From a virus (taxonomy: Duplodnaviria; Heunggongvirae; Uroviricota; Caudoviricetes): 30,282 nucleotides of DNA. The translations under genes were made by a program, and so were the position numbers. Positions 4,062 to 28,334 of this stretch are shown here, piece after piece. A model generated the notes under the pieces. The model made no database searches and was not told the DNA's origin. It saw only the letters and a list, made by a program, of their open reading frames with translations. The first letter of the stretch is position 1. The number at the start of each line of letters is the position of its first letter. Location of the stretch: IMG/VR virus record IMGVR_UViG_2671181050_000003; one strand, written 5' to 3'.

Positions 4062-5276
4062 TCACAGCTTCACTGCGGTATCAACGGCAATAACACCGTG
4101 ATCCTGCATCTTGCCGCTCTTCTCGGGGAAACGGATTTTTTTCAGACCGTTGATCCAGCTGATTGCTATCTCAGTACGGTTATCCATATCCGTTTTCTTC
4201 TCAACCATGTTGAAGTGGCCGCCGCCCTTCTGGCCGTACGCATTCGCCAGCGCCTGAGCCCCCAGCAGCATGGCACGGTCGATGTTGGTCTTGGCCTGCT
4301 TCTCCTCTGTGGTTGCTGCCATATCGTTTTTCGATACAAGGACCTTTGAGTCCTTATAGAAACGGATCGGCATCCCCGCATACTTACGGACCAGAATATT
4401 GCGCCACATCGCACATTCGCCTTTAAACAGCGGATGGTTAAAACCTTTTGAGCGGTTTACGGCACGCGTCATCATCTGGTTCCAGTCCTTGCCGGACGTG
4501 GAGGTGTACCAGTCATTCCACTGACGCGGCGTGACGTAGAGGACGTAATACGGATCTTCGCCATACAGCTCATCACCGGACAGGCGTACCGGTTGTAACG
4601 GATGAGCCATCTCGTCAATAAACAGTGAGAGATTATCGACCAGCGCAAGAGTGAACAGGTCAGACTGGTCAATACTCTCAAAACTCGTCGCATCCCCACC
4701 GAAAAAATGACGATCATGCGTCGGCGGCAGTACGTCGTTGATCATGATTTTTTTGAATTCAGGGTGATCTGCCGTTGGCAGAATGGTGTCATCAGCAACA
4801 AAATCACCGCGGGCACCGGCAAGATGCACTATCGCACACTGGTCCTGCAGGTCGTTAAAGTACGTACCCAGCAGCGTTCTGGCAGAGGATGCCAGGTTGA
4901 ACTTCGTACGCTGCTGGCTCATACGTCCGCCCGCATCCACCAGGTGACGGCCCTGATTAATTTTCAGGGAAAAATCAGCATGGCTGAGGTCTTCACCACG
5001 GCCTTCAACGCGCTCATCCCCCATCGTCGGACGTTTAGAGAGTTTGTGCATGATGCTGAACGTCACTTCATCACCGGCCTGTTTGTTGAGGTCCGTGATT
5101 CGCACAACCGGTGCACCGGCACTGGTCTGCTTCGTGCTTTTCTTGTCAGGCGAAACTGCTTTTGGTGCATCCTGCTGTTCAGTGAGTATATTCACCATTG
5201 AGCGGTTGCGGTTGGCAGCCGTGAAAAGCGCCACCTGATACAGCTTATTCGCCTGGGCTGTTGTTACTGTGGTCAT
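4062..5276 (-). CDS. Major capsid protein (404 aa), assigned by position
   Basis: A 404-aa ORF immediately after the scaffold-like gene in the terminase-portal-scaffold-capsid order, followed by a terminator; no sequence motif recognised. Confidence 0.65.
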   Translation of the reverse strand: MTTVTTAQANKLYQVALFTAANRNRSMVNILTEQQDAPKAVSPDKKSTKQTSAGAPVVRITDLNKQAGDEVTFSIMHKLSKRPTMGDERVEGRGEDLSHADFSLKINQGRHLVDAGGRMSQQRTKFNLASSARTLLGTYFNDLQDQCAIVHLAGARGDFVADDTILPTADHPEFKKIMINDVLPPTHDRHFFGGDATSFESIDQSDLFTLALVDNLSLFIDEMAHPLQPVRLSGDELYGEDPYYVLYVTPRQWNDWYTSTSGKDWNQMMTRAVNRSKGFNHPLFKGECAMWRNILVRKYAGMPIRFYKDSKVLVSKNDMAATTEEKQAKTNIDRAMLLGAQALANAYGQKGGGHFNMVEKKTDMDNRTEIAISWINGLKKIRFPEKSGKMQDHGVIAVDTAVKL

Positions 5277-11402: not shown

Positions 11403-11870
11403 TTATTTCAGGCACTGAGTGCGGATATATTCCTGTGCCCCTTCCAGCTGCTTCTGCATCATCATCAACCGCTCTCTGAGGGTGAAATAATCCCGTTCAG
11501 CGGTGTCTGCCAGTCGGGGGCCGGTTGCATTATCCATGCCGGAGGTGCCGGTGGCTTCACGCACGGTACCGGAGCAGGTGGCGTTGATCCGCAGGCGCTT
11601 ACGACCAGCAGCAACATCAGCACGCAGAGTTTCATTTTCAGCTCTCGCATCGGCTAATTCCCTCGAGTATTTTGCATCGAGCGCAGCAACATCGCGCTGG
11701 CGCACCTGCATATCAGTAATGGTGGCGTTTGCCAGCTCCAGCTCTCTGGCTTTTTTATCGCGCTGCGCTTTGTAGGTGATGGCGTTATCGCGGTAATGGT
11801 CTGTTGCCAGCCACAGCGCACCACAGCCACCCGCCAGGACAATAATCACCACACACAGAACACGGCTCAT
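11403..11870 (-). CDS. Rz: Rz-like i-spanin (155 aa)
   Basis: N-terminal transmembrane segment, coiled-coil periplasmic domain, position after the endolysin, and a complete embedded +1-frame lipoprotein ORF. Confidence 0.8.
11465..11635 (-). CDS. Rz1: Rz1-like o-spanin lipoprotein, embedded in Rz in another frame
   Basis: [15 protein letters not shown] lipobox followed by a Pro-rich mature peptide; start taken at the internal Met of track ORF 11465..11650. Confidence 0.7.
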
Positions 11871-12362: not shown

Positions 12363-12896
12363 TTATCTGTCAATTCCCCAGCACGCCAGCGCGCTCTCCT
12401 GGTCACGCCGCGATACCTGCCCGTAACAGTTATTTGAGCGATTCCGACAGTCCCTGCCGCCGTCATATATCCATCGGCGGATTTCAGCACATGCACCTTT
12501 CCGGTCTCCGGCGTTCAGTTTCCGGTAAAACGTTGAGGTGAAGCATTTCGAAGGCCCGATGTTGTACGGACAGAATGACGCGATGCCCGCTTTCTGCGGT
12601 TCAGTCAGTGGCACTCTGATGTTTTTCTCCACCCATGCCAGCGCCTTATCACGCTCAATGGCGTTAACCTGGTCGCATTTTTCCTTCGACAACTTCATGC
12701 CCGGGACGACAGGTTTGCCATCCACCATGATGGCACCACGGCAGATGGTCCAGATCCCCGCACCATCACGGTATGCCGTGGTGTGGTTACCTTCTTTTTC
12801 GTCAAGAAACTGGTCGATGATTTCAGGCGCAGAAGCACCTGCCGCAATCAGCGCCAGAACGGCTACCGATAAACCATAGTGGAGTTTCTGAGTCAC
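12363..12896 (-). CDS. R: SAR endolysin, phage lysozyme with T4-lysozyme-type catalytic triad (177 aa)
   Basis: N-terminal Gly/Ala-rich weakly hydrophobic segment (signal-arrest-release type), then E-x8-D-x5-T (EGNHTTAYRDGAGIWT); immediately downstream of a pinholin-like gene. Confidence 0.85.
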   Translation of the reverse strand: MTQKLHYGLSVAVLALIAAGASAPEIIDQFLDEKEGNHTTAYRDGAGIWTICRGAIMVDGKPVVPGMKLSKEKCDQVNAIERDKALAWVEKNIRVPLTEPQKAGIASFCPYNIGPSKCFTSTFYRKLNAGDRKGACAEIRRWIYDGGRDCRNRSNNCYGQVSRRDQESALACWGIDR

Positions 12897-12900
12897 CTAA

Positions 12901-13116
12901 TCACTCTCCCCGGGCAGCCTTGCGACGGTCCTCTTTAATTTTGAAATACAGATTCGTCAGGTATGTCAGGAACCCCAGACACAGGCTCCCCAAAACCCCG
13001 ATAGCAGCCCACTGTGACGGAGTAACCTGATCCAACCACTGTAGAAACCAGTAACCCGCACTGCCCGCAGAAGTACCATAGGCTATGCCCGTTGATATTT
13101 TTTCCATCTGATACAT
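12901..13116 (-). CDS. S: Class II holin of the phage 21 pinholin type (71 aa) with dual-start motif
   Basis: Translation [45 protein letters not shown]... closely matches my recollection of the phage 21 S pinholin; two transmembrane domains; Met1/Met4 dual starts. Confidence 0.85.
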
Positions 13117-13192
13117 ATCCCCGCCCCGACAGACCTGTGCTACCGGAAATAAAAAAGGCCATCAGTGTTTTACTGATGGCCCTGCCCCGCCG

Positions 13193-13483
13193 TTACAGCA
13201 TTGTGCCCGGTTCGGGTTGTGTGTCTGTCATATCCGTCACCGGTGACTCCGGCTGAATATCACCATTTTCCGTGGTGACATCTTCCGCCTGTGGTTCCGG
13301 AAGCAGTTCCGGGGATGGTTCCGGCTGTGCACCAAGCAATTCATCCAGAATTGAATCCACTTCTGCATCAAGACGCGCCTCAAGGTTCTGCCGAAGTTGC
13401 TGTTTCAGTGCGCTCCGGACTTCTTCAGAGCGCAGGACTTCCTTCACTGCCTCAGCAGTGACCAGCGATTTTATTTCTGACAT
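13193..13483 (-). CDS. Hypothetical acidic protein (96 aa)
   Basis: Start taken at the internal Met (MSEIKSLV...) of track ORF 13193..13657; Pro/Glu-rich C-terminus; weak ribosome-binding site. Confidence 0.35.
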   Translation of the reverse strand: MSEIKSLVTAEAVKEVLRSEEVRSALKQQLRQNLEARLDAEVDSILDELLGAQPEPSPELLPEPQAEDVTTENGDIQPESPVTDMTDTQPEPGTML

Positions 13484-13508
13484 AGGATTTTCTCGTTGAA
13501 AGGGGTTA

Positions 13509-13703
13509 TTAAGAAGGTTGTTCCGGAATGAGTGGGGCTTCTGTTTTTGCTCCGGCTGACTGAGTGGCGCTGATTTTCTCAGCGGCCCTTTTGTCAATCT
13601 GTCTGCGCCAGAAGTCGCGTACTGCCCTGTATCCACCCGAAAGCAGATACAACACACAGACCACCGTACAGAAGTACAGCATTAACTGGTTGATGAATGT
13701 CAT
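13509..13703 (-). CDS. Small hypothetical membrane protein (64 aa)
   Basis: One predicted transmembrane helix (LMLYFCTVVCVLYLLSGG); lies in the gap downstream of the esterase gene. Confidence 0.3.
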   Translation of the reverse strand: MTFINQLMLYFCTVVCVLYLLSGGYRAVRDFWRRQIDKRAAEKISATQSAGAKTEAPLIPEQPS

Positions 13704-13843: not shown

Positions 13844-15817
13844 TTATGCTGCTACGGCATTCACACCAACAGTAAGACTTTCAATCAGCACAGGGTAAGT
13901 TGCCGCATTTCCGGTAATATCCGTAATTGCCAGCGCGTTGGCCTCAAAGGCTGCATTCGTCCATCTGGTCAGCGTAAACGGTTTTCCTGCTGCATTATCA
14001 AGCACCGGCGTGACGTTCAGCGAGCCACCACCCGGGAAGCGGAAAGTCAGCGTGTGCCAGTCGTGATCGAACGGACCATAACTACCAAGCCGCTGTGATG
14101 TGGTGTTTGCATGATACATCACATTGATGTTTGTTTTATCAGTCTGCAGATAGAAGGCCGCAATATAACCCTCCTCTGATTCCGCTCCCGGCCATCCACT
14201 ACCGCGCCAGTAAATACCCGCAGAATATTGATTTGCAGAAGCATTGAGAGATACATCATCGGGGATTTTAAAGCGCAGCGTGATTTCACCGCCGTTATCG
14301 AACAGCTCCTTCCCCTTACCGGCATCAATTGCGTGCGATACTTTCCAGGTCTTTTTCTGTGCAAGACCATTTTCTGGTTTTTCAAGACGAAGGGCTTTTT
14401 TACCTGAACCACTGTCACTGACCAGCGTGTTTTTGACATCTGTCAGCGTCCAGCCCTGCGAAGCCAGATCGGCATTTTCCGCATTCGCATCATAAGCCAG
14501 CACTGACTGTATCTTTGTCGGGACAACGGATTCAGGCTGAGTATCGCCACTCTCCTGTGCTGGTTGCGATACGCCTCCGCCTGAAGAAACCGCGGCTTTT
14601 GTCACTTTCCCGGAAACAAAATCTGCCACTCTGCCCACATGCAGAAGAATGGCTGTTGCCAGACGGTCGGAAATAATTCCGCGACGCGCCCATGAACCAA
14701 AGTGGGTTTTACGATCGGATGTTGTCCAGCTCTTCGCATCCGTTCGTCCACCGGAACCATAATACCCGATAGCCGGAATATCCGGGTCTTCTGACGGTTC
14801 ATTGGTCCCGACTTTCTGACCATTGTCATCCATCATAAACGGCACAAAGAAGATATTTTTACCGGCTTTGGTTTTGTATGCGCCATAGACGGCATCGTAT
14901 TGCGCTGAATACGTCTCCTTCCAGTAGTACGTCGTGTCACCACAAATCCAGGGCACCAGAGAAGGAGAAGCACCAGCGCACTGACCGGATACTCCCGCCA
15001 GGTCAGAACGGTATTTTTCCACCATGGCATCAAACATGGCGGGCTGACTGGCGTACGCTCCCTGTTTTAAATCAAACTCGCCCTGCATCCAGACAACACA
15101 AAGCAGTATGTTTTTGGGGTTTGCCTTCAGCGCGGCCTGAGTGCGTGTCAGCAGGTCTTTATACAACGGCTTATCAACGCCCCATCGTTCAGATTTATCC
15201 GACGCTCCTGAACTTTCACTGAACGTTCCGTCAGCACCGGCTGTAAACGCAGAGCCACCACGACAGCACGGCACTAACAAAATACCCGCATTTTCCGGCA
15301 TAAAGGGCAACAGCTTTTTGGCAATATGCAATCCCTGTCCGACACACCCATACTGCTCTGCGCTGGCTTTCGGATGAGAAAAACGGCTCAAATCCTGCAC
15401 ATCATGCAGGCAGTGGTCCGCCGGAATGATGTCGTTATATGCACAGGCCGCACCACCCGGTGTCACCGTACTGCGACGCGCCAGCTGTTTAATACGCGGG
15501 TCCGGACGGTCATATGTCTCCGGCAGCGGCAGACCTTCACCATACGCCATGCCGTTTGACTGTCCGGCCAGCGCAATGACAAAGTAATATTCTGGTTCAA
15601 CAACAACAGTCCGGGTACCATCTCCCCCCGGTGAAACTACCGGAGAGGTCATATCCCCTTCAGCGACTATAGCCTGGATAAATTCAGCACCATAACCCGC
15701 GTTTGAGATAATCGGACTACCATAGGGTTGCCAGCCTTCCTTCAGTTTTTGCGTCAGTTTTCCTGCGAGGTCTGACGGCGATGATGCCCTGACCACGTCA
15801 TAGTGTTTAAATGCCAT
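13844..15817 (-). CDS. nanS: Prophage sialate O-acetylesterase, NanS-p-like (SASA/SGNH hydrolase, about 658 aa)
   Basis: GQSN(G)M esterase motif (ALAGQSNGMAYG) and a DUF1737-like N-terminus (MAFKHYDVV...); start taken at the internal ATG with a GGGAGG ribosome-binding site; located between the late regulatory region and the holin, as in EHEC lambdoid prophages. Confidence 0.75.
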   Translation of the reverse strand: MAFKHYDVVRASSPSDLAGKLTQKLKEGWQPYGSPIISNAGYGAEFIQAIVAEGDMTSPVVSPGGDGTRTVVVEPEYYFVIALAGQSNGMAYGEGLPLPETYDRPDPRIKQLARRSTVTPGGAACAYNDIIPADHCLHDVQDLSRFSHPKASAEQYGCVGQGLHIAKKLLPFMPENAGILLVPCCRGGSAFTAGADGTFSESSGASDKSERWGVDKPLYKDLLTRTQAALKANPKNILLCVVWMQGEFDLKQGAYASQPAMFDAMVEKYRSDLAGVSGQCAGASPSLVPWICGDTTYYWKETYSAQYDAVYGAYKTKAGKNIFFVPFMMDDNGQKVGTNEPSEDPDIPAIGYYGSGGRTDAKSWTTSDRKTHFGSWARRGIISDRLATAILLHVGRVADFVSGKVTKAAVSSGGGVSQPAQESGDTQPESVVPTKIQSVLAYDANAENADLASQGWTLTDVKNTLVSDSGSGKKALRLEKPENGLAQKKTWKVSHAIDAGKGKELFDNGGEITLRFKIPDDVSLNASANQYSAGIYWRGSGWPGAESEEGYIAAFYLQTDKTNINVMYHANTTSQRLGSYGPFDHDWHTLTFRFPGGGSLNVTPVLDNAAGKPFTLTRWTNAAFEANALAITDITGNAATYPVLIESLTVGVNAVAA

Positions 15818-16018
15818 TATTCCTCCCGGCAGGGATAGTGTATGCAATCAAGATAAGGTGCGGGCTGACGTCAGTCATGGACAAGGGTTCAGAAACAGGA
15901 GGATGACTACAGCCCGCAATACGAAAAAGACCATACAGTTGCGCAGAGTGATTACTATCAGGTATTATTCGCCAGCTGAAAATTGATCACTTCACGTTTT
16001 GTTGTTTATTCCTTGCCA

Positions 16019-16047
16019 CCCGCGCTTCCCGGCGCGGGCTTTTTTTT
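16019..16047 (+). terminator. Strong intrinsic terminator on the plus strand
   Basis: CCCGCGC/GCGCGGG stem followed by eight T; no plus-strand gene upstream. Confidence 0.5.
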
Positions 16048-16054
16048 ATCCAAC

Positions 16055-16300
16055 AAGAAAGCCCCTCCGGAGAGGGGCTGGAGAGTAGCGCTATGTACCG
16101 TTCATGCATGGTGCAGGGTGCCTCCCGGTGAGTTCAGTATCAGCACCTGAACCCGCACCAGAAAGGATAAGGGGTGTGACCAAACACCTGTCGCTGATAT
16201 GCCCCTCCGCACAGGGGGATTCACCATGCCATATTTTTTTAACAAACTTCCCGCTGGCCAGACAATAATCGCCAGCCTGAATTGTGAGTAACGTGGCATT
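16055..16300 (-). repeat. Repeat unit A of an ORF-free tandem family, ending in a hairpin terminator (16061..16079)
   Basis: Shares conserved blocks with unit B (aaagcccctccggagaggggctg, catggtgc.agggtgcctcccggt, gggggattcacca, atttttaacaaa, gccagacaat, aattgtgag). Confidence 0.6.
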
Positions 16301-16324
16301 TTACGGGAAAACTGTTTTCTGCAG

Positions 16325-16534
16325 TAAAAAGGCCCGCCGGAGCGAGCCTGGAAGGATAGCGGTCATGTGATGCCGGTTTCCCGGTAACTCAGCATCGGTA
16401 TCTGAGTCAACGTTTTCTCTACTGGGTCATTTCCGATACGTTCCGCCTTCCGGCAGACTTTCATCACGTCAGAAAATATAGCACCCTGAGTAACAGGACA
16501 GTACTCAGAATTCAGGAAACTGTGACACATCCTG
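16325..16534 (-). repeat. Diverged middle unit of the same family, with its own hairpin terminator (16330..16349)
   Basis: Opens with aaaggcccgccggagcgagcctgg...tagcggtcatg, parallel to the start of units A and B. Confidence 0.4.
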
Positions 16535-16790
16535 CACAGAAAAGCCCCTCCGGAGAGGGGCTGAAGTATAGCCTAATTTCTGTCTGTCGCATGGTGCCAG
16601 GTGCCTCCCGGTAAATTCAGCCTGGCTACTGAATTTGCATGTTCGCTGGATCATACACTTTGCCAGATGCCCCGCCGCTGAGGGGGATTCACCACGCGAT
16701 GCAATTTTTAACAAATTCTCCGGCAGCCAGACAATCATCAAGCTGTGGAATTGTGAGGTATTTAAAAATTTCGCAGCCTCTTGCCACCCG
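16535..16790 (-). repeat. Repeat unit B, ending in a hairpin terminator (16544..16561 plus T-run)
   Basis: See unit A; perfect GCCCCTC/GAGGGGC stem followed by TTTTCTGTG on the minus strand. Confidence 0.6.
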
Positions 16791-16876
16791 CTTTTCACAA
16801 AAATCGTATGTAGAAGGCCGCAGCGTAACTATCACTGATGAATTCAGGACACCCAGAGGCTACGGCTCAGTTTGGA

Positions 16877-16948
16877 TTGTGGCGGCCGGAATCGAACCAG
16901 CTCCCATCGGTGCGCTGCCGATTACAATACGCGCGGCGATCCGCTACA
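16877..16948 (-). pseudogene. tRNA-like element: canonical T-arm and acceptor stem, anticodon-like hairpin, non-canonical D-arm
   Basis: Minus strand reads tgtagcg...atcgg-cagcgca-ccgat-ggga-gctgg-ttcgatt-ccggc-cgccaca-a. The GGTTCGATTCC T-loop is exact and the acceptor pairs 6 of 7, but the D-arm does not fold, position 33 is not U and no CCA is encoded. Confidence 0.35.
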
Positions 16949-17080
16949 TGACTAGTATTTTCACAGTCGCCTGTCTGCTAGCTCGCCATTGAGCTTCACC
17001 ACAACGATAAGAGCACTGCGCACACCTTTCACCAATTCCACGAGGTCTGCGGGTTCAATGCTCTTACCTGTTGTGCAAAC

Positions 17081-17107
17081 AAAAAGCCCCGACATTTCTG
17101 CCGAGGC
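17081..17107 (-). terminator. Candidate tR'-like terminator about 100 nt downstream of the putative late promoter
   Basis: GCCTCG/CGGGGC stem (one G-U pair) followed by TTTTTGTTT on the minus strand. Confidence 0.35.
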
Positions 17108-17214
17108 CTTTACCTAATCTAGCCAGTATGCCGATCCTAAATATTATCGACGACCGAGGTAAATCAGGATTTCTCTTTCGCTTCTCAGTGCGCTTTTGCT
17201 CCGAGCATACACAA

Positions 17215-17267: not shown

Positions 17268-17894
17268 TCATCCAGCAATCACTAGAAGTTCTTTCTCCAA
17301 TTCTCGCTTCATTGCATAAAACATTTCTGAATCAAGGACCCTCTCGCACCACACGACCCGCCTCCGGCAATACTGAATATCAACTCCTGTTATCTGAGAA
17401 ATCATCCTGGCGATATCTTGCGTGCTGTCGCGATTGCAATATCGCCTAATAGCTACATCACGGACAGGGCTTTCACGATGAAAGGTCTCAACCATCACAC
17501 GTTCAACGAAAGCAGCATCATCGGATTCTTTGGCGAGAGCAATGATATTACCTGCCGATGACTGAGGGATGACCAGTTCTCGGGCTTTCTGATGGAGTTC
17601 ATCTCCACGTAGTCCGTCTTCTTCATACAGACGCATGACAACAGACTCAATCTGCTTAGCTTTGTCATCGCTCCACTGACTGCGAATCATCAGTCGCCCA
17701 ATAACGTTAATTGCACCACAAGGAGAATCATCACCAGCGTTAACATTTCCCCATACCTGTAGCATGTAGTGAACCCATGCTTTCTGACGAGAGTTAATGA
17801 TTTTCTTCGGATGCCTCCATATGCGGCGGAAATGAGCATCATTAATAAAGTTAACCATGCCGAATACTGGGGTTAGCCGCATCACAGCCCCCAT
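17268..17894 (-). CDS. Putative late antiterminator Q (208 aa), assigned by position
   Basis: Last gene of the nin region, immediately upstream of the candidate pR'/tR' and the late genes; four Cys residues; family not recognised from sequence. Confidence 0.4.
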   Translation of the reverse strand: MGAVMRLTPVFGMVNFINDAHFRRIWRHPKKIINSRQKAWVHYMLQVWGNVNAGDDSPCGAINVIGRLMIRSQWSDDKAKQIESVVMRLYEEDGLRGDELHQKARELVIPQSSAGNIIALAKESDDAAFVERVMVETFHRESPVRDVAIRRYCNRDSTQDIARMISQITGVDIQYCRRRVVWCERVLDSEMFYAMKRELEKELLVIAG

Positions 17895-18124
17895 CCTTTA
17901 CAATGACACCACACTTCAAACATTCGTTTCACAACTTCACGGCAGTAGAAACCGTCAGCATCACGTGTCAGGTCATAGCGATCTCCGTGCTTCAGTCTCA
18001 TATAGCATTCGAATAATCTGTTCATATACTCTTCGCCATGAACTCCGCTATTACGCTGCTCATGCGCTTTTCCAGACGACCTGAATAAAGCCATGCGTTC
18101 AGGCACCTGCTGAATATCACGCAT
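17882..18124 (-). CDS. Hypothetical protein (80 aa)
   Basis: Internal ATG of track ORF 17882..18229 preceded by AAGGGGA; overlaps the ninH stop and the Q start, consistent with translational coupling. Confidence 0.4.
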   Translation of the reverse strand: MRDIQQVPERMALFRSSGKAHEQRNSGVHGEEYMNRLFECYMRLKHGDRYDLTRDADGFYCREVVKRMFEVWCHCKGWGL

Positions 18125-18317
18125 CAGTAGCTTTCCCCTTATCCCATCCACGATGAACCATAAGGACACCGTTGACGACGGCGTGCCGTTTGCCTTCTTT
18201 ATCACCGACATATTTTCTGACCGTAGCACGATTACAGTTCAGTTTTCGTGAAACTTCAGTCATATTGCCTCGTGCCTGGATAAGCAATTCCGGTATTGTT
18301 TGAATTGTGGCGTTCAT
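18117..18317 (-). CDS. ninH: NinH-like small DNA-binding protein (66 aa)
   Basis: Translation MNATIQTIPELLIQARGNMTEVSRKLNCNRATVRKYVGDKEGKRHAVVNGVLMVHRGW matches my recollection of lambda NinH along its length. Confidence 0.8.
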   Translation of the reverse strand: MNATIQTIPELLIQARGNMTEVSRKLNCNRATVRKYVGDKEGKRHAVVNGVLMVHRGWDKGKATDA

Positions 18318-20341: not shown

Positions 20342-20609
20342 GACAACGCCCTCTGGTTGATGAATTTAACTATCACCACCGTCAGGTGCAAATCTTTGGG
20401 TGGTGAGACGTACAGGGTTTGCACTACCGGATCAACCAACCGGCGAGCCTTTCGGCTCCCCCATACGCCCCACCATAATTCAGATGTGCGTGTGCTTACG
20501 ACAACAAAAAACACGCTCGCGGCGTGTGTCTGTCGCGGTTGAATATCCGGGGTGCAAATCCCGACGCCAGATTTTGCTGGCGTGCGAAGAATATAATCCC
20601 GGATATGTG

Positions 20610-20638
20610 TTGTCGTCAACATACCTTGAATGTATATA
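20610..20638 (+). promoter_or_regulatory. Candidate sigma-70 promoter (TTGTCG, 17-nt spacer, TATATA) for the toxin-antitoxin operon
   Basis: Hexamers read directly; the predicted start site is only a few nt before the first candidate ATG, giving a leaderless or short-leader mRNA. Confidence 0.4.
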
Positions 20639-20649
20639 ACAAATTTGTT

Positions 20650-20991
20650 ATGTTTACTCTCATGAACTACATTATCGAATACTACAGTGACGAGGTTGAA
20701 GCTGAGATCCTTTCTCTTCCTGAGACCTTACAAGCCCGGTACATTCGGTACACGGAGAAAATGCGTATTTACGGAGCTAATCTTGGTTCCCCGCATACAG
20801 AGGCATTTGGCGACGGTTTGTTTGAAATCCGCCTTAAGGGCTCGGAAGGCATAGGGCGTGTTTTTTACTGCACGCTAAAAGGAAAGCGAATCATTATGTT
20901 GCATAGCTTTGTAAAGAAAACGCAAAAAACTCCACCTGCCGAGCTTAGAAAAGCTGAAACCAGAATGAAGGAGGTTAAGCATGACTGGTAA
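20650..20991 (+). CDS. RelE/ParE-superfamily toxin, Gp49-like / HigB-like (about 110 aa)
   Basis: MNYIIEYY...LPETLQARYIRYTEKMRIYGANLGSPH...FEIRLKG...RVFYCTLKGKRIIMLHSFVKKTQKTP fits my recollection of the Gp49-like toxin family; 3' end overlaps the antitoxin start by 11 nt; start is 20650 or 20662 (no ribosome-binding site at either). Confidence 0.7.
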   Translation: MFTLMNYIIEYYSDEVEAEILSLPETLQARYIRYTEKMRIYGANLGSPHTEAFGDGLFEIRLKGSEGIGRVFYCTLKGKRIIMLHSFVKKTQKTPPAELRKAETRMKEVKHDW

Positions 20992-21289
20992 ACGTACCCC
21001 ACCTACCATGACACACGATGAAATGGTAGAAAAAATGTTGTCTAACCCCGCAGTAAAAGCAGAATACGACGCCATCGCCGATGAATTCGCACTACTTGAT
21101 GAAATGCTGGCAGCACGAAAAGAAGCTGGCTTAACCCAGGCTGAAGTTGCTGAACGTATGGGAACAAAAGCGACTGCGATAACCAGAATGGAAAGCAATC
21201 TTGCATCAGGTACAAGCGGCCCATCATTTGCCACACTGAAAAAATTCGCCCGTGCTACAGGGAAAAAACTCCAGATCCGCTTCGTTTAA
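20981..21289 (+). CDS. XRE-family helix-turn-helix antitoxin, HigA-like (102 aa)
   Basis: AAGGAGG ribosome-binding site; helix-turn-helix GLTQAEVAERMGTKATAITRMES; toxin-first operon order as in higBA. Confidence 0.75.
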   Translation: MTGKRTPPTMTHDEMVEKMLSNPAVKAEYDAIADEFALLDEMLAARKEAGLTQAEVAERMGTKATAITRMESNLASGTSGPSFATLKKFARATGKKLQIRFV

Positions 21290-28276: not shown

Positions 28277-28334
28277 TTTCTGGTGACATTTGGCGGTATC
28301 AGTTTTACTCCGTGACTGCTCTGCCGCCCTTTTT
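28277..28334 (+). ncRNA. dicF: DicF-like small RNA
   Basis: tttctggtgacatttggcggtatcagttttactccgtgactgctctgccgcccttttt matches the E. coli DicF sequence as I recall it with about one substitution; followed by dicB-like and ydfD-like genes as in Qin. Confidence 0.65.

Follow-up and report, generated by a model that had tools for sequence, protein, structure and literature searches.

An intact nanS-p homologue in a toxin-free phi24B-type prophage of Escherichia coli, probably a late-expressed, virion-borne esterase

Described esterases and displayed glycan-binding proteins

The NanS-p proteins of Stx phages, such as Z1466/L0105 of 933W, vb_24B_21 (gp84) of phi24B and orf42 of VT2-Sakai, are sialate O-acetylesterases with the domain order DUF1737-SASA-DUF6645, and their occurrence in non-Stx prophages has also been documented (PMC10462455). 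A homologue with the same domain order lies at positions 13,844 to 15,817 of IMG/VR record IMGVR_UViG_2671181050_000003, a stretch of 30,282 nucleotides (the window) that represents an stx-negative lambdoid prophage of the phi24B/933W podovirus type. The best explanation of this gene is probably that it encodes an intact NanS-p, expressed late and carried on the virion as a mucus-modifying enzyme, and not an autonomously expressed moron; this judgement, made from sequence, blends the confidence placed in family and active site, in late expression and in capsid display. The window protein has the catalytic residues, the sugar-binding residues and the Tyr42 loop of the Stx-phage proteins, and its gene occupies the same site, between an STnc100-bearing Q region and the genes DUF1378-DUF826-S-R-Rz, in a phage whose capsid and packaging module is 90-97% identical. 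It differs from the Stx phages in having no stx operon, functional tRNAs or AsxR, a duplicated STnc100 and an unrelated type of Q, and from the characterised NanS-p proteins in about 41% sequence divergence, a distinct variant of the lectin domain and unrelated linkers.

The chromosomal NanS of E. coli (YjhS; PDB 3PT5) shares the SGNH type II/SASA fold, the Ser-His dyad without Asp, the oxyanion Gln and the QGE of block III, but is a single-domain protein of 326 residues, encoded in a nanC-nanM-nanS operon and lacking both DUF1737 and the C-terminal lectin domain. Catalysis by NanS involves Ser19 and His301, with an oxyanion hole formed by Gln18 and a Gly, and the Asp of block V is lacking (PMC9063846, PMC9487903). 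The (H)QGE motif of block III defines the SASA family (PMC9487903).

A role of NanS-p on the virion has been described for phi24B, in which gp84 is among the most abundant virion proteins and decorates the capsid, as determined by proteomics and cryo-electron microscopy (bioRxiv 10.64898/2026.04.10.717836). Hexamers of its DUF1737 plug the central hexon of each face of the T=9 capsid via the Tyr42 loop, and proteolysis later releases the enzyme from the virion (bioRxiv 10.64898/2026.04.10.717836). The same preprint draws a comparison with T4 Hoc, for which display at hexon centres and interaction with mucin glycans have likewise been proposed. Hoc, however, is Ig-like, non-enzymatic and binds as a monomer, whereas gp84-type proteins form hexamers, occupy only the face-centre hexons, bear an esterase and are proteolytically shed. 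The haemagglutinin-esterases of influenza C virus and betacoronaviruses also combine a virion-displayed sialate O-acetylesterase of the SGNH fold with a lectin module (PMC9063846), and the logic would be similar to that of the window enzyme, namely to bind and destroy O-acetylated sialic acid in mucus. They are, however, envelope glycoproteins of eukaryotic viruses, belong to SGNH type I, use a Ser-His-Asp triad and carry an inserted lectin domain. This likeness is an analogy, with no sequence relationship beyond the superfamily.

An intact NanS-p with a divergent lectin domain

The gene and the domains of its product are as follows.

13844..15817, minus strand: nanS-p coding sequence, 657 amino acids plus stop codon (open reading frame list, Pfam, PDB, RefSeq)
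15821..15827, minus strand: Shine-Dalgarno sequence GGGAGGA 5' of the nanS-p ATG (read directly from the sequence)
15647..15817, minus strand: DUF1737 N-terminal domain, residues 1-57, putative capsid-binding module (Pfam PF08410)
15596..15646, minus strand: linker 1, residues 58-74 (alignment with phi24B)
14645..15595, minus strand: SASA/SGNH type II esterase domain, residues 75-391 (3PT5 match, three-way alignment)
14510..14644, minus strand: linker 2, residues 392-436, poorly conserved (alignment with phi24B)
13847..14509, minus strand: lectin-like jelly-roll DUF6645 domain, residues 437-657 (6YP6, PF20350)

The longest frame begins with a TTG at 15847, while the RefSeq annotation takes the ATG at 15817. 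The RefSeq homologue, WP_016237845.1 ('SASA family carbohydrate esterase'), is found in E. coli G6/7 at the same position of a locus that is 99.6% identical. Three Pfam families match above their curated cut-offs: DUF1737 (PF08410) at residues 3-53 over the full length of the profile (E=6.2e-17), SASA (PF03629) at residues 83-274 (E=1.4e-9; 38.3 bits against a cut-off of 24.8) and DUF6645 (PF20350) at residues 508-618 (E=5.8e-27). The phrog_143 match spans the protein from end to end (E=4.5e-299), residues 71-391 match the E. coli NanS/YjhS structure 3PT5 (E=3.3e-118) and residues 437-653 match the C-terminal domain of NanS-p from phage phi24B, 6YP6 (E=1.3e-43). NCBIfam offers no family model for the window esterase. 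An earlier note on this DNA had placed a NanS-p-type esterase with a DUF1737-like N-terminus and a GQSN-type motif at exactly these coordinates; the Pfam, phrog_143, 3PT5 and 6YP6 matches agree with it, PF08410 covers the N-terminus, and GQSN stands at residues 85-88.

The active site was assessed in a three-way alignment of the window protein, phi24B gp84 (vb_24B_21) and K-12 NanS. Block I, with Gln86-Ser87-Asn88 in the sequence A-G-Q-S-N, is invariant, and Gln86 and Ser87 are equivalent to NanS Gln18 and Ser19. Invariant as well are Gly187/Gly188 of block II, in C184-C-R-G-G-S, and Trp243-Met-Gln245-Gly-Glu247 of block III. In block V, His372 aligns with NanS His301 and, as in NanS, there is no Asp; the surrounding sequence reads RKTH here, where known NanS and NanS-p proteins have RSSH, RASH or RPTH. 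None of the SGNH/SASA catalytic residues, whose absence on alignment the earlier note had named as the finding that would speak against its proposal, is missing. In the phi24B protein's C-terminal domain, the aromatic residues Y510, Y515, Y540 and F611 have been proposed to bind carbohydrate (PMC10462455), and these align with Y531, Y536, Y556 and F624 of the window protein.

By every feature of NanS-p membership that can be read from a sequence, the protein belongs to the family, and it is almost certainly a member with a complete active site. It is thus a product of known family and known position, annotated in RefSeq, and an uncharacterised allele. As the frame is uninterrupted and all key residues are intact, nanS-p probably encodes an intact and active enzyme here. 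By analogy with the family, Ser87 would attack the 9-O-acetyl ester of 5-N-acetyl-9-O-acetylneuraminic acid (Neu5,9Ac2), and also of O-acetylated mucin sialoglycans, to give an acyl-enzyme intermediate. His372 would act as the base, and the oxyanion hole with Gln86 and Gly would stabilise the intermediate; Gln86, Gly187/188 and Q245-G-E247 together would form an inverted oxyanion hole. The C-terminal lectin domain is expected to target the enzyme to glycans.

Conservation is uneven along the protein. Overall amino acid identity to phi24B gp84 is 58.6%, with 77% in DUF1737 (residues 1-57), 73% in the catalytic domain and 48% in the C-terminal domain, and with only 23.5% in linker 1 and 31% in linker 2, which is also 13 residues longer. 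The catalytic domain is 57.7% identical to K-12 NanS, and the C-terminal domain is 42-50% identical to every other body type sampled. The full-length allele is present at 99% identity or more in 20 of 5,426 complete E. coli genomes. Megablast finds no match to the part coding for the C-terminal domain outside those 20 genomes, and matches to the N-terminal and catalytic coding parts in about 1,160 genomes at 71-82%. Among complete records, phage PhiR5_2 (99.5% over 5.3 kb) and 18 complete E. coli genomes come nearest. A literature search on the phages PhiR5_2 and PhiR12 gave nothing relevant. The E. coli sources of the allele are human faeces, wastewater and the like, that is commensal and ECOR-derived strains and not enterohaemorrhagic E. 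coli (EHEC), which speaks against the earlier description of this cargo as typical of EHEC.

Identical NanS-p proteins are encoded on several independent viral contigs (L007, L008, L012). Linker 1, which joins DUF1737 to the esterase, includes a homopolymeric G6 tract at about 15624-15629 (codons 63-65 on the minus strand). In PhiR5_2 (L002) this tract is G7, and the gene is annotated as two coding sequences, one for a DUF1737-only protein of 73 residues and one for an esterase of 568 residues. The G7 could be a sequencing error, or it could mark a slippage site by which anchor and enzyme become uncoupled. On two further contigs (L041, L042), nanS-p is cut down to 77 residues that comprise DUF1737 only.

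Possible capsid display through DUF1737

Two features of gp84-type display can be looked for in a genome, and both are found in the window, namely the Tyr42 anchor loop and cognate capsid and cement proteins of the phi24B type. The anchor loop of the window DUF1737 reads S-N-A-G-Y42-G-A-E-F, and the stretch A-G-Y42-G-A-E-F-I-Q is identical to that of phi24B. With DUF1737 alone as the query, the PDB yielded no solved structure. By homology with gp84, DUF1737 would assemble as hexamers in the central hexons of the T=9 capsid via the Tyr42 loop, with the phi24B-type major capsid protein as its presumed docking partner, and the esterase would be displayed on the virion and later shed. That this particular allele is displayed on the capsid appears, by analogy with gp84, somewhat better supported than the opposite.

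The distribution of NanS-p among phages is wider than that of the phi24B-type head. NanS-p occurs in 341 records of the phage collection, and a phi24B-type capsid protein (at least 80% identity) in only about 190. The Stx1a siphovirus LC567823, for example, combines NanS-p with an HK97-type protease-capsid fusion, and its DUF1737 has no G-Y-G loop, the sequence at this site being A-I-T-P-Y-T-L-M-Q. Eighty NanS-p loci from IMG/VR were compared together with 10-kb flanks, and the head module was classed where the flank sufficed. Three subtypes of the loop are associated with head modules as follows.

Loop subtype 1, AGYGAEF: phi24B-type head in 6 of 7 determinable loci, HK97-type fusion in the remaining one (L056)
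Loop subtype 2, TPYTLMQ: HK97-type fusion in 6 loci and lambda gpA/gpB/gpC-type head in 9 (15 of 15)
Loop subtype 3, TDDGAAL: gpA-like terminase with a ClpP-Phage_capsid_4 fusion (6 of 6)

The phi24B-type head was never found with loop types 2 or 3 among these loci. Subtype 3 (S-S-Y-T-D-D-G-A-A-L-I-Q; for example L015, L016 and L067) occurs with a single head, which consists of a gpA-like terminase of 670 residues, a lambda-family portal of 500 residues and a ClpP-Phage_capsid_4 fusion of 706 residues.

The remainder of the protein, the body formed by the catalytic and C-terminal domains, does not follow this pattern. In L011, L013 and L015, the bodies are 99.0-99.7% identical, while the N-termini belong to subtypes 1, 2 and 3 and are only 65-71% identical; likewise, L063, L067 and L078 have bodies of 97-99% identity and N-termini of 58-64% identity. 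When bodies were clustered at 93% identity or more, one cluster was seen with type 1 on head A, with type 2 on head B and with type 3 on head D. Simple physical linkage is unlikely to be the whole explanation of the association between subtype and head, because the body, which is the part that shuffles, is encoded between the N-terminal segment and the head genes. The comparison indicates that the DUF1737 subtype tracks the head module, whereas esterase bodies are exchanged freely, a pattern that is supportive, not conclusive. It invites the tentative proposal, somewhat short of an even chance, that NanS-p is a modular capsid-displayed system in which at least three DUF1737 adaptor subtypes are matched to heads and the esterase-lectin payload is swapped freely. 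The window protein would then be a third, previously uncharacterised payload, with a lectin domain less than 50% identical to those of the other alleles sampled, carried on a T=9 capsid of the phi24B type in commensal E. coli.

Probable late expression and the interval upstream of nanS-p

The interval between the Q-like gene and nanS-p contains the following elements.

17268..17894, minus strand: candidate Q-like late antiterminator gene, RefSeq start 17882 (204 amino acids) (phrog_753)
17074..17111, minus strand: tR'-like intrinsic terminator, about 160-190 nucleotides 3' of the Q-like gene (RNA fold)
16877..17003, minus strand: tRNA-like remnant (sub-threshold Rfam tRNA)
16534..16727, minus strand: STnc100 unit 1, with terminator 16562-16543 (RF02076, 138.7 bits)
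16323..16498, minus strand: degenerate third STnc100-like unit, with terminator 16349-16330 (Rfam 30 bits, repeat family D1)
16049..16258, minus strand: STnc100 unit 2, directly 5' of nanS-p, with terminator 16079-16060 (RF02076, 129.9 bits)

Four intrinsic terminators on the strand of nanS-p thus separate it from the Q-like gene. A promoter scan of the minus strand from 16060 to 15818, that is from the last terminator to the ATG, found no sigma-70-like site, although such a consensus scan may miss a weak or non-sigma-70 promoter. The GC content is 0.50-0.52 across 13-16 kb (about 0.51 in nanS-p), compared with 0.51-0.55 for the late and structural genes next to it. Neither of the two marks of a moron that can be sought in the sequence, an own promoter and a deviant composition, was therefore found. 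A terminator-like site follows 3' of nanS-p at 13183-13155, and nearly all phi24B-type phages have the gene at the same position. Strong induction of nanS-p together with the late genes has been reported (PMC8065619, PMC10462455). Because no promoter of its own was detected and it lies behind four terminators, nanS-p reads as a Q-dependent late gene, and late expression under the control of Q is likely on this evidence. The gene would be transcribed only once Q has modified RNA polymerase at the late promoter, i.e. on induction.

The tR'-like terminator consists of a 13-bp hairpin followed by a U-run, and the 148-nucleotide leader has a folding z-score of -3.4. The product of the Q-like gene, 'hypothetical' in RefSeq, matches phrog_753 ('anti-termination protein Q-like'; E=3.5e-68). 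It has no Pfam or NCBIfam family and no similarity to the Q proteins of phi24B or VT2-Sakai, and among PDB sequences it retrieved only ERp29 matches at chance level, which were discarded. Pfam has nothing for the upstream neighbour of the Q-like gene or for the plus-strand open reading frame at 16639-16992. A tblastn search with VT2-Sakai Q detected a 30-residue remnant of the N-terminus of a 933W-type Q at 18074-18169, overlapping the end of ninH (50% identity, E=8e-5), and nothing of a 933W-type Q beyond it. This remnant, together with the unrelated Q-like gene, suggests that the whole Q-tRNAs-stx block was replaced by recombination.

The earlier note had seen no toxin gene in this interval, only repeat units and a tRNA-like element, and each of these observations could be confirmed. 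A tblastn search of the whole window with Stx2A and Stx2B gave a best E-value of 1.6 and hence no stx. The repeats are the two STnc100 units, which both exceed the gathering score of RF02076 (47) and cover model positions 1-206, and a third unit that at 30 bits falls below this score and is not a member by that test. The three units stand in tandem, about 210-270 nucleotides apart, and each ends in its own terminator hairpin. The tRNA-like stretch scores 26.5 bits against an Rfam gathering score of 29 and carries a GGTTCGATTCC T-arm; as its 127 nucleotides are spread over a 71-position model, it appears to be a disrupted tRNA, and it is probably what is left of the tRNA cluster located between Q and stx in Stx phages. 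ARAGORN found no tRNA and no tmRNA in the whole window.

The phages phi24B and VT2-Sakai each have one STnc100 between stxB and nanS-p, with the antisense small RNA AsxR after it, and the location of STnc100 3' of stx2 has been described (PMC12370729). The presence of STnc100 at the same site shows that its linkage with nanS-p is conserved and that the window lacks only the part with toxin, tRNA and AsxR; a search for AsxR gave no match in the window even at E<=1. A recent preprint finds that related prophage small RNAs are not tandemly duplicated, and the tandem STnc100 array may be unusual. At the site of AsxR in Stx2 phages, the plus strand has a strong terminator hairpin (16019-16038; 8 bp, 7 of them GC, then T8), at which a different antisense transcript may end.

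Alternative roles of the esterase

The most serious alternative is that nanS-p is a classical moron that serves lysogenic conversion, as the earlier note had proposed. The esterase would then be a soluble cargo without a role in the virion, released by spontaneous lysis, with DUF1737 irrelevant or otherwise used, and the E. coli population would benefit from conversion of mucin Neu5,9Ac2 to the catabolisable N-acetylneuraminic acid (Neu5Ac). The prophage NanS-p proteins of EDL933 and O104:H4, including non-Stx alleles, are indeed active, let the bacteria grow on Neu5,9Ac2 and remove O-acetyl groups from mucin glycans (PMC8065619, PMC10462455), and the host strains of the window allele are gut isolates. 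However, the gene lacks a detectable promoter and any compositional anomaly and lies behind four terminators, it is nearly always present at this position in phi24B-type phages, and its phi24B orthologue is an abundant virion protein. In addition, pure cargo would not be predicted to have a DUF1737 subtype that tracks the head module and an enzyme body that does not. A purely conversional role is thus unlikely, although it retains more weight than any other alternative. Of the earlier proposal of a moron and host-adaptation cargo, family and context stand, while the functional label is doubtful.

The preference for a late-expressed enzyme on the virion is tempered by several observations. Decoration of the capsid is known from one preprint and one phage. 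The SSP motifs in the linkers of gp84 are not conserved, linker 1 reading EGDMTSPVVSP instead of the SISSP of phi24B and linker 2 having no SSP; their part in autoproteolytic shedding is a conjecture of the preprint (bioRxiv 10.64898/2026.04.10.717836), and their absence weakens the detail of processing, not that of anchoring. NanS-p occurs with at least four different head modules, as would be expected of mobile cargo, and the published growth benefit to lysogens leaves room for a role in conversion. As identity to gp84 is 58.6% over the whole protein and 48% for the lectin domain, the substrate specificity could differ. The association of loop subtypes with heads comes from IMG/VR contigs that are non-independent and includes one exception (L056), and internal gene conversion among multiple nanS-p copies, without any functional coupling, could give the same pattern. 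Finally, the candidate late promoter PR' at 17243-17215 is weak by consensus (-35 TTGCTT, -10 TATGTT), was picked by hand and fails the criteria of the promoter scan. Virion display and a benefit to the host population are compatible in one respect, as release of a displayed esterase at lysis would also supply usable Neu5Ac to surviving lysogens.

A second alternative, raised as a possibility in a review (PMC8065619), is that the virion esterase aids adsorption. It would de-O-acetylate bacterial glycans, such as O-antigen or an O-acetylated polysialic capsule, and so expose a receptor, in the manner of deacetylating tailspikes. A location on the virion is compatible with this function, and the divergent lectin domain (48% identity) could mean another glycan target. 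The phi24B protein, however, sits on capsid faces and not on the tail, the catalytic domain shares 58% identity with chromosomal NanS, which acts best on free 9-O-acetyl Neu5Ac (PMC9487903), and nothing ties the host strains to O-acetylated sialic capsules, so that this function is improbable, well behind conversion.

That the gene is a decaying, inactive copy in a defective prophage, as the split gene of PhiR5_2 with its G7 frameshift, the annotation of a 'DUF6645 domain-containing protein' only in strains G8 and SW070917 and the frameshifted small terminase next to the gene in G6/7 might suggest, is rejected with little reserve, since the 657-residue frame is uninterrupted and preceded by a good Shine-Dalgarno sequence, all catalytic and sugar-binding residues are intact, identical proteins occur on the independent viral contigs mentioned above, and the flanking late genes that were compared are full length.

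Prophage setting

The gene order Q-like, small RNAs, nanS-p, DUF1378, DUF826, S, R, Rz, terminase places nanS-p at the head of a late region which, from nanS-p through the lysis, terminase, portal and capsid genes, is syntenic with that of phi24B. The neighbouring genes are as follows.

13509-13703, minus strand: DUF1378 gene (Pfam; 90% amino acid identity to phi24B vb_24B_23)
13193-13657, minus strand: DUF826 gene (Pfam; 71% amino acid identity to phi24B vb_24B_24)
12901-13116, minus strand: P21-type holin S (Pfam; 82% amino acid identity to phi24B S)
12363-12896, minus strand: lysozyme R (Pfam; 89% amino acid identity to phi24B R)
11403-11870, minus strand: Rz (Pfam; 91% amino acid identity to phi24B Rz)
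4065..5276, minus strand: major capsid protein (PF13252, Phage_capsid_3, E=4e-87; 93.8% identity to vb_24B_29 over 404 residues)

The small terminase, the large terminase and the portal are 93%, 96% and 97% identical to their phi24B counterparts, and the homologue of vb_24B_28 (cement protein) 90.1%. All flanking late and structural genes that were compared with phi24B are full length. Between the DUF826 and holin genes, a terminator-like 12-bp hairpin with a T-run (13155-13183, minus strand) parts the nanS-p-DUF1378-DUF826 block from the lysis cassette inside the late operon.

Further RNA elements above the Rfam threshold are DicF (28278-28329, plus strand), isrK (20506-20583, minus strand) and C4 antisense RNA (20396-20480, minus strand), the latter two adjoining an antirepressor-like gene, an arrangement shared with phi24B and VT2-Sakai. 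A pair consisting of a RelE/ParE-family toxin and a helix-turn-helix antitoxin, named HigB/HigA in PhiR5_2, is located at about 20631-21258 (plus strand; taken from the annotation of L001), between the nin region and the replication genes.

Implications for lambdoid coliphages

In commensal E. coli, phi24B-type prophages without the toxin retain the full NanS-p module together with its STnc100 partner, here with a rare and divergent lectin domain, which marks NanS-p as a feature of the phages and not of EHEC. The domain-swap pattern provides independent genomic support for the anchoring of DUF1737 in the capsid and suggests its extension to other head types. If virion display holds true, nanS-p would be reclassified from a cargo of lysogenic conversion to a virion-displayed, mucus-modifying enzyme, with a bearing on how Stx phages and their relatives move through the gut mucus. 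If the modular arrangement also proves true, mucus-directed virion enzymes would be general among lambdoid coliphages and not a virulence accessory of EHEC.

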